Notes: generated by a model not told the origin, from the letters alone. Shown: positions 5,354 to 7,651, counted from the stretch's first letter. The stretch is 64,000 nucleotides of DNA from Dictyostelium discoideum (GCA_000004695.1 CM000152.2:5248001-5312000); one strand, 5' to 3'. Translations and numbers: made by a program.

Positions 5354-5525
5354 TTAATTTTGAACTTCATTAGGAATAATATTATTAATATTATTATTAT
5401 CATCATTATTATTAATATTGTTATTACCATTATTATTATTAATATTATTATTAGGTTGCTCATTATTGTCATTGTTATTGTTATTGTTATTGTTATTGTT
5501 ATTGTTATTGTTATTGTCATTATTG

Positions 5526-5608
<83 letters not shown>

Positions 5609-5790
5609 TTGTTGATCATTTGGTCTATATGTAGGAAGGAGAGAGGTTAACATTGTCGAAAAAAATAGTACAATTTCTGATAAAAAGTCTTGTGGTCTTT
5701 GTTGAGGTTCTGCTCTTGGTTGTTGGTTTTGATTATTATTATTTTCATTGTTTATATTATTATTTATATTATCATTGTCATTATTATTTA

Positions 5791-5875
<85 letters not shown>

Positions 5876-5978
5876 TGGTTGTGGTTGTGGGTGTTGATTG
5901 TTATTATTATTATTATTATTATTATTGTTGTTGTTATTATTGTTTGGTCTTGGTAAAGGTGCAAAAAATATATTATAG
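5354..5978 (-). CDS. Possible exon 3 of UBL-domain gene (Asn/Gln-rich tail with a second hydrophobic stretch)
   Basis: Acceptor ccacaacAG|C at 5980-5979. AT+C continues in-frame into the 247-aa ORF as ...YNIFFAPLPRPNNNN...FLSEIVLFFSTMLTSLLPTY...IIPNEVQN*. The alternative is that the protein ends at ...ALYYM* (6066). Both splice junctions have the correct phase, which favours the three-exon model. Confidence 0.35.
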
Positions 5979-6069
5979 CTGTTGTGGTAAAATAATGGTT
6001 GATTAGTAAAAAGAATAATAAATATATATAAACGTAGGTTCAATAAAAAAAAAAAAAAAAAAACCTTAC

Positions 6070-6614
6070 ATATAATAAAGTGCAATGCAAACGCCAACAG
6101 TTATCATTCTTTCCATTGAACCACCTTGTAAAAACAATGCTAAAAAGATAAACTTTACAATATTTCTAAGATTAATTCTAAATACTCTGACTCTTGGTTG
6201 TGCTGCTGCTGGTGCTGCCACAGCTGGTGCTGCTTGAGGTTGAGCAGGTGCTGCTGCTGTTGGTTGTTGTCTTGGCTGTTGTTGTTGCTGCTGTTGATCT
6301 AATCTTTGTCTTATTTGTTGAAGAGCTTGAAATTCAGCTTGTAAATGTGCTCTGTGTTGTAAACTACCATGACGATGATGGTTCATTGGTTGTGGTCTTA
6401 AATTTATAAGTTCTTGACGATTTAATTGTTGTTGTAAATATAATTGTTGATTTATTCTAAGACATTGGTCAGTTTTACTTAATTTTTCTTTTGATGTATT
6501 TTTCGATGATGATGATGCTGAATCCCCATCTGATGATGGGAAATAATAAAATGATTCTGGTGAGTTTATAAAAGAGTTATTATTTCTTAATAAAATTATA
6601 TCCCTTTGTGTATT

Positions 6615-6615
<1 letters not shown>
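6070..6615 (-). CDS. Exon 2 of UBL-domain gene: Gln/Pro/Ala-rich region and a hydrophobic (transmembrane-like) segment
   Basis: Acceptor ...AAAAG|A at 6617-6616. Splicing AT+A restores the frame: ...LSL-I-NTQRDIILLRNNNSFINSPESFYYFPSSDGDS...QQQQQQPRQQPTAAAPAQPQAAPAVAAP...FLALFLQGGSMERMITVGVCIALYY. The 125-nt intron is >90% A/T. The exon again ends AT|GTAAGG (6069-6064), where the ORF track reads M-stop. Confidence 0.5.
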
Positions 6616-6659
<44 letters not shown>

Positions 6660-6740
6660 AATTTGTAAATTGTTAATAAAATATAAAGTTTTTTTTTTTT
6701 TTTTAAAAAATAAATAAATAAATAAATAAAAAAAACTTAC

Positions 6741-7100
6741 ATTAAACTTAATAATCTATTTAATGTATTTTGATCTAAACTTTCAATATCAATATTTAAA
6801 TCATTTAAAATTAATTTTGAATTTTCTTTTTTCTTTGATGAGTAACGTTGTAATTTGGTGAATTCTTGTTCTAAATATTTATGAGATTGTGAAAAGTGTT
6901 CTCTTAATTCGCTTAAATCTTTTTGATTCACATCATTTGAATCTTTATCGCTATCATTAATTGTATTGTTTTCATTTGCAAATGATTCTGCTATTGTTGT
7001 AGTTTGTAATGGTGATGATAATACTGGTGATGATGTAGATGATGATGAAGATGATGAAGGTGAAGCTGTTGTAGTAGTAGTAGTTGTAGTAGTTGTAGTT

Positions 7101-7132
<32 letters not shown>

Positions 7133-7651
7133 TGGTGATAATGATGGTGAAGTTGAAGAAGTAGCAGTAGTATTAGTATTAGTAGTTGTTGTTGGAAAAT
7201 TATCATTAAATGGATTTGGTATATTGAATGCATTTGAATATAAACCATTATTGCTATTGCTGTTACCATTATTATTACTATCACTATTATTTATTGTAGC
7301 ACTTGTTGAATTTGGTGATAATGATGGTGAAGTATTTGAATTTGAATTTACAGTTAAAGAATTTGGAGGTGATGGTGAAATTATTTTCTTTTTTAAAATT
7401 AAATGAATTGTATGAACAGATGAAGAGGTTGGTCTTTGTTTAAATACTTGATCCAACACTTGTTCATCTTCTAACATTTTACCTGCGAATATAAGCTTTT
7501 GGTCTGATATCAATGGTTTCTTATCATGTTGTTTGTTAATTATCTCTTTTAATTGATATACTGTACATGTATTATTTATATCCAATGATAAATGCTCTTC
7601 ATCTCCAAATAATACAATTTTAACTTGAACCAACTCCTCGTTGCTTGACAT
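6741..7651 (-). CDS. Exon 1 of ubiquitin-like (UBL) domain protein gene (Herp/HERPUD-like architecture)
   Basis: ATG at 7651-7649. N-terminus MSSNEELVQVKIVLFGDEE...QKLIFAGKMLEDEQVLDQVFKQ is a ubiquitin-fold (compare QRLIFAGKQLED), followed by Ser/Thr/Asn-rich linkers. The ORF track ends it at ...LSLM*, but that stop is ATG-TAA-GT, i.e. exon ...TTA AT|GTAAGT. The donor lies at 6740-6735 with phase 2. Confidence 0.6.

Follow-up and report, generated by a model that had tools for sequence, protein, structure and literature searches.

A stretch of 64,000 nucleotides (nt) of Dictyostelium discoideum DNA (GCA_000004695.1 CM000152.2:5248001-5312000), referred to as the window and numbered from its first letter, was analyzed with respect to a gene on its minus strand. 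According to the DNA itself and its comparison with related genomes, the segment from 7651 to 5354 is almost certainly a single D. discoideum gene composed of three exons and two short phase-2 GT-AG introns. We consider it likely that the reading holds as a whole, meaning that this one gene encodes a protein of the Herp type with a ubiquitin-like (UBL) domain and a membrane hairpin. For homology or functional equivalence with Herp, taken as a separate question, the balance tilts in favor.

Without splicing, the open reading frame (ORF) that starts with the ATG at 7651, preceded by an A-run, extends to 6737 and comprises 304 amino acids (aa). It ends ...TTA ATG TAA GTT, with the in-frame TAA (6739-6737) lying inside the donor of intron 1. 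Similarly, the frame of exon 2 ends ...TAT ATG TAA GGT, and its TAA (6068-6066) is located inside the donor of intron 2. In a preliminary description of this DNA both frames had been reported to end in ATG TAA GT and the stops had been read as parts of splice donors. This applies fully to the first donor, GTAAGT, but the second one is GTAAGG; the coordinates and frames given there proved exact. GTAAGT is known to work as a splice donor in Dictyostelium (PMC3159450). Cutting at AT/GTAAGT (between 6741 and 6740; the slash marks the exon end) and joining to the first downstream AG (6617-6616) keeps the frame, and the cut AT/GTAAGG (between 6070 and 6069) with the acceptor AG at 5980-5979 keeps it to the final stop. 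The spliced coding sequence of 911 + 546 + 625 = 2082 nt is free of internal stops and encodes 693 aa (Table 1). Exons 1, 2 and 3 have GC contents of 26%, 33% and 16%, respectively, in a window that is very AT-rich overall (14-30% GC).

Table 1. Features of the analyzed DNA with their positions in the window.
Feature	Window position	Strand	Description
Exon 1	6741..7651	minus	911 nt; residues 1-304, of codon 304 only the first two bases; UBL, then long S/T/N-rich low-complexity linker, then short charged helix-like stretch
Intron 1	6616..6740	minus	phase 2, GTAAGT...AAAAG, 125 nt, 4.8% GC
Exon 2	6070..6615	minus	546 nt; frame open for 182 codons; Q-rich coiled-looking region, P/A/Q-rich stretch, hydrophobic helix 1, first half of helix 2
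Intron 2	5979..6069	minus	phase 2, GTAAGG...ACAG, 91 nt, 19.8% GC
Exon 3	5354..5978	minus	625 nt including the stop 5356-5354; rest of hydrophobic helix 2, poly-Asn tracts, conserved C-terminal helix, more poly-Asn, conserved end IIPNEVQN
UBL domain	7388..7633	minus	about residues 7-88
Hydrophobic hairpin	5960..6185	minus	residues about 448-492, VFRINLRNIVKFIFLALFLQGGSMERMITVGVCIALYY/IYNIFFA; two short helices with GGSMER between them
C-terminal hydrophobic or amphipathic helix	5624..5698	minus	residues 580-604, RPQDFLSEIVLFFSTMLTSLLPTYR
Other candidate phase-2 GTAAG introns	51135-51049 and 50751-50447	minus	from a crude scan of the window
Three very large ORFs	10026-18453, 20803-27456, 37533-44756	minus	2200-2400 aa

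All models with one or two GT-AG introns of at least 30 nt were enumerated that use the same ATG and final stop, remove 216 nt and leave the frame open. Exactly one such model exists, giving 693 aa, namely the intron pair put forward in the preliminary description. An alternative acceptor of intron 2, the in-frame AG at 5950-5949, was rejected. Its use would remove IYNIFFAPLPR, residues that have counterparts in Tieghemostelium lacteum and HERPUD1, and it does not fit the annotated length of 693 aa.

This annotated length is found in the assembly GCA_054883475.1 (CM142509.1, 6.43 Mb), where one gene is called with the identical ATG and stop and a product of 693 residues. Since a single splice solution leads to 693 aa, the annotated product must be the three-exon protein. 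Across the gene, the DNA of this assembly differs from the window solely in intron 1, whose poly-A run is shorter there by eight A. The 8-nt homopolymer difference maps to window 6646-6653 and represents a strain difference, an assembly difference or a homopolymer sequencing error; other small indels shift the coordinates elsewhere between the two assemblies. One gene is also called at the orthologous place of D. cf. discoideum (GCA_054859235.1), with 698 residues. Splicing the D. cf. discoideum DNA at the conserved sites gives exactly 698 aa, and the resulting introns of 88 and 97 nt match the annotated range. The gene had been thought to be hidden and prone to be split by automated callers into three ORFs; both assemblies contradict this, each with a single called gene. 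The structure of the gene is ordinary and publicly available already.

Exact look-ups of the 693-, 486-, 304-, 106- and 698-aa products in the protein collection gave no match, and neither did a homologue search with the full 693 aa or with a version stripped of low-complexity tracts. Because the gene index does list the 693- and 698-residue products, the failed protein look-ups are uninformative. Low-complexity filtering of the clustered protein collection possibly caused the lack of these two entries, and negatives for such proteins should not be over-read.

The comparison with D. cf. discoideum, at a DNA divergence of ~5%, shows conservation of both donors and both acceptors, those of intron 1 being identical. 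All indels in the exons (12, 6, 6, 9, (1+5), 6, 6, 3, 120, 3, 3, 45, 39 and 3 nt) preserve the frame, including the one non-triplet case, an adjacent 1+5 nt pair in exon 1 that sums to 6. The indels in the introns are 11, 5 and 21 nt for intron 1 and 7 and 1 nt for intron 2. In the spliced frame, the ratio of nonsynonymous to synonymous differences per site (pN/pS) is 0.22 for exon 1, 0.18 for exon 2 and 0.29 for exon 3; as judged from these substitutions, purifying selection acts on exons 2 and 3. No residue differs between the two in the hairpin, in the C-terminal helix, in the final eight positions of the protein or in the non-repeat parts of exon 3. On the side of the repeats, D. cf. discoideum has poly-Asn tracts in exon 3 that are shorter by 45 and 39 nt, and its exon 2 carries a 120-nt in-frame expansion after window ~6522, resulting in a poly-Ser run of ~40 residues. 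In this pair of genomes the repeat tracts of the protein turn over fast, in contrast to the unchanged hairpin and SLLP helix. A further repeat lies upstream of the gene at window 7715-7815, ~65-165 nt before the ATG in the presumed promoter or 5' untranslated region. This minisatellite consists of six to seven copies of the ~15-nt unit AAAAAGAGATAAAT(A); D. cf. discoideum has a long poly-A run at this place instead.

Independent evidence for the connection of the exons was obtained from a HMMER search with exon 2 alone as query, which was exhaustive over 1.84 billion representative proteins. Two matches resulted, one of which was discarded as a repetitive artefact. The other one (E 1e-6) is DLAC_11346 of T. 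lacteum (KYQ88605.1), publicly named 'hypothetical protein' or 'Ubiquitin-like domain-containing protein'. Its gene is intronless and consists of a single 1677-nt ORF of 558 codons, in which UBL, hairpin and C-terminal helix follow each other collinear with the D. discoideum protein. As the query consisted of exon 2 only, the presence of counterparts of exons 1 and 3 in this one polypeptide is independent support for exons 1-3 belonging together. The identity between D. discoideum and T. lacteum amounts to 38% over 81 aa in the hairpin and 56% over 25 aa in the C-terminal helix, which reads RPQDIISETIFFFGVFFKSLLPTWR in T. lacteum. With the joining frames, the single splice solution, the two annotations and the conservation, the three-exon gene is supported with exactly the intron boundaries proposed in the preliminary description.

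In T. lacteum, the orthologue (4001-5677) is arranged head-to-head with a 228-aa RING-finger (zf-C3HC4) gene (3004-3822, minus strand). Conserved synteny with a RING-finger neighbor was looked for around the D. discoideum gene and not found. The neighbor there is a small multi-exon gene with no recorded Pfam match, whose hydrophobic N-terminus resembles, by eye, a signal peptide.

In Pfam, ubiquitin (PF00240) is the only family above the cut-off (residues 18-69, E 9.3e-8); sub-threshold matches of Dsc3_N and Rad60-SLD_2 fall on the same UBL. The search of the PDB places the UBL at about the same distance from ubiquilin-3, Dsk2, HERPUD1 (1wgd, 25.8 bits), HERPUD2 and Rad23, so that the UBL alone cannot name the family; ubiquitin was matched as well. 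Kyte-Doolittle hydropathy, calculated in 19-residue windows, peaks in the windows starting at residues 448 (1.59), 474 (1.86) and 584 (1.49). Together with the Pfam match, this bears out the proposed architecture of an N-terminal UBL and C-terminal hydrophobic segments. Intron 2 is situated at codon 486, within the second hydrophobic helix (MITVGVCIALYY/IYNIFFA), and the best-conserved motif of the protein, RPQD..SE..FF....SLLPT.R, common to T. lacteum and HERPUD1, is encoded by exon 3. As intron 2 splits helix 2 and exon 3 carries this motif, exon 3 is not optional, in contrast to what had been suggested earlier.

For the comparison with Herp, HERPUD1 sequences were gathered with a query for the human protein that is 98% identical to a database entry. 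BLASTP aligned the UBL of the D. discoideum protein with that of HERPUD1 (31% identity over 78 aa, E 1e-8) and returned a second, collinear high-scoring segment pair from the hairpin to the C-terminal helix (460-601 versus 279-386, E 0.002 for a single comparison). An alignment of the full-length proteins with hhalign reported the UBL only (96.7% probability). A hidden Markov model (HMM) of the C-terminal third of HERPUD1, built from 91 sequences, was then compared with the C-terminal region of the Dictyostelium protein, from which the poly-Asn tracts had been removed. The score of the D. discoideum region was 16.8 bits, from two collinear pieces. The piece with the hairpin, which crosses the exon 2/3 junction, has 6.1 bits, and the FF..SLLP helix reaches 12.7 bits in this condensed query and 15.2 bits alone (42-residue piece 569-610). 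None of 1000 full and none of 1000 local shuffles attained 16.8 bits, the best of them reaching 11.8. The T. lacteum region gave 7.7 bits, a score that none of 1000 full shuffles and 2 of 1000 local ones attained, and its C-terminal helix 8.2-10.7 bits. Alignment of the dictyostelid C-terminal profile with that of HERPUD1 by hhalign resulted in E 3.9e-5 and 70% probability over 83 columns. Within HERPUD1 the helix motif is almost wholly invariant: in 12 aligned sequences F380, F381, S383, L384, L385, P386 and E387 are invariant and A382 is nearly so.

Several observations weigh against an assignment to Herp. For the central motif WFQQIYARQYYMQYL, which is invariant in amniote HERPUD1, no counterpart was detected; the corresponding HMM scored -1.6 for D. 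discoideum and -11.5 for T. lacteum, no better than shuffles. The HERPUD1 profile was built from amniotes only, and with such a profile the central motif may be metazoa-specific. In the PDB search the UBL is no nearer to Herp than to the UBLs of ubiquilin or Dsk2. Outside the UBL, the likeness to HERPUD1 is weak, is located in hydrophobic segments and originates from targeted one-to-one sequence comparisons. No Pfam family covers the membrane region of Herp, even HERPUD1 matching 'ubiquitin' only, and a curated family test does not exist. In the PDB, that region likewise has no solved structure, and nothing there matched the C-terminus of the Dictyostelium protein. Overall, the Herp-likeness of the predicted protein is moderately supported. 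From the proposed Herp/Usa1 type, the architecture and the weak collinear similarity to HERPUD1 stand, but neither the central motif nor a Herp-specific UBL could be found. The HMM search for Herp and UBL that the preliminary description had suggested gave matches of PF00240 and of the C-terminal HERPUD1 model and a negative score of the central-motif model.

The gene could also be a real three-exon gene that encodes no Herp homologue. Its product would then be a lineage-specific membrane-anchored UBL protein, for example a Dsc3/TMUB-type Golgi E3 subunit or another UBL tether, and the hydrophobic resemblance would be convergent. This explanation is in line with the equal closeness of the UBL to ubiquilin and Dsk2, with the absence of the Herp central motif in the HMM test and with a similarity beyond the UBL of just 17 bits. 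It could further refer to the Dsc3_N match on the UBL (E 3.9e-4), but this match is weak and, with 21.3 bits, remains below the curated cut-off of 25.4 bits, which does not place the protein in Dsc3/TMUB. Moreover, the Dsc3 C-terminal domain gave no match even at E up to 10, and convergence would have to account for three features collinear with HERPUD1, including the almost wholly invariant FF..SLLP, at a score reached by no shuffle. We regard a non-Herp protein as unlikely and favor the Herp type.

The stop codons in the two donors deserve a separate consideration. A phase-2 intron with a donor starting GTAA always reads xxG-TAA, which explains the in-frame stop at the donor. The disguised stop that had been singled out in the preliminary description is consequently nothing special and is the same in any intron of this kind; further candidates in the window begin at 51135 and 50751. 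The ORF 51132..51779 likewise ends in the TAA of its own candidate GTAAG donor. In the window the octamer ATGTAAGK shows no enrichment, with 8 matches compared to 4.75 +/- 1.95 expected. What exceeds chance at the present locus is the context, that is, long compatible open frames, conservation and annotation, and not the bare motif. One might imagine the two GTAAG donors as built-in switches, with intron retention toggling between membrane-bound and soluble or decoy Herp-like forms, e.g., under stress of the endoplasmic reticulum (ER). If so, keeping intron 1 would result in a soluble 304-aa UBL protein and keeping intron 2 in a 486-aa form with a crippled anchor. We consider such a function very improbable, the immediate in-frame stop being equally expected without it.

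Hardly credible is a translation that stops at 6737, with a soluble UBL protein of 304 aa as its product and with the frames farther downstream as separate genes or non-coding DNA. The ORF is complete from ATG to TAA and an ATTAAA hexamer occurs in an A/T-rich stretch after it, but in the T. lacteum orthologue a single uninterrupted ORF contains every part, one gene is called in two annotations, purifying selection acts on exons 2 and 3 in the spliced frame, and the first ATG of the exon 2 frame comes at codon 78, with no promoter-sized spacer before exon 2. There is just as little to be said for a two-exon gene that ends at 6066 (486 aa) with exon 3 as an unrelated low-complexity ORF: most frames of AAT-repeat DNA are open, and a long ORF in exon 3 by itself proves little, but the stop at 6066 would leave a 13-residue stump of helix 2, and exon 3 outside its repeats is unchanged in D. 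cf. discoideum, shows 56% identity to T. lacteum and matches the C-terminus of HERPUD1.

For the three-exon gene with a Herp-type product, a function can be proposed by analogy. Herp is a UBL protein that is fixed in the ER membrane through a hydrophobic hairpin and is nearly all cytosolic; it assembles HRD1, SEL1L, OS-9 and Derlin (PMC3967970). Yeast Usa1, the scaffold of the Hrd1 ligase, is regarded as its functional counterpart (PMC8922271). In the same way, the hairpin would anchor the Dictyostelium protein in the ER membrane and leave both termini of the protein in the cytosol. The conserved membrane-proximal segments would dock it to the Hrd1 ubiquitin-ligase complex, which the protein would organize, and the UBL would recruit or regulate proteasome or ubiquitylation factors during ER-associated degradation. 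We found no literature on a Herp or Usa1 counterpart in Dictyostelium, and Herp is missing from a review of ER stress in Dictyostelium, in which Derlin-2 is listed. With the gene model being public, the gain for annotation is small; the family assignment would add a modest functional gain. If Amoebozoa do have a Herp-type adaptor, the design of UBL, hairpin and SLLP helix is older than the divergence of Amoebozoa from animals and fungi, and the Dictyostelium ER-stress model gains a candidate organizer of the Hrd1 complex.

Regarding the surroundings, the gene, probably on chromosome 3, lies close to DDB_G0282021 with one called gene between the two; a 211-aa ORF at window 1750-2385 is identical to DDB_G0282021. 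Another ORF of the window is identical to a NOL1/NOP2/Sun protein of D. discoideum AX4. The three very large ORFs (Table 1) are a polyketide synthase gene cluster. A phase-1 GTAAG intron of 91 nt connects the first of them, 10026-18453, with an upstream exon of 365 aa, and the orthologous product contains ketoacyl-synthase, acyltransferase, KR and ACP domains.

Among known systems, Dsc3 and TMUB1-2, the UBL-bearing membrane subunits of the Dsc E3 complex, share the combination of a UBL and transmembrane segments as well as the weak Dsc3_N match with the Dictyostelium protein, but differ from it in the Dsc3 C-terminal domain, which is not matched, and in the Dsc3_N score below the cut-off. The likeness to yeast Usa1 is one of architecture only, comprising a UBL, a two-helix membrane anchor and the proposed role as scaffold in the Hrd1 complex. 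Usa1 differs in its much greater size and in the internal position of its UBL. T. lacteum DLAC_11346 has the UBL, the hairpin with the pattern PRVR..RIN..FL..FL.GGS..R.IT and the RPQD..SE..FF....SLLPT.R helix in common with the D. discoideum protein, whereas it is intronless, 558 aa long and Q-rich instead of N-rich. Compared to HERPUD1, the Dictyostelium protein is almost twice as long due to its poly-N, poly-T, poly-S and poly-Q tracts, has no WFQQIYARQYYMQYL motif in its center and possesses an extra Asn-rich tail past the SLLP helix. Similar to HERPUD1 is the Pro-rich exit after the hairpin, FFAPLPRP in Dictyostelium and WFPFRxRP in HERPUD1. With HERPUD1 and HERPUD2, the metazoan homocysteine-responsive UBL proteins of the ER, it shares an N-terminal UBL, a long disordered middle, a hydrophobic hairpin, a polar N-rich spacer and a C-terminal FF.SLLP helix, and the order of these elements is kept.

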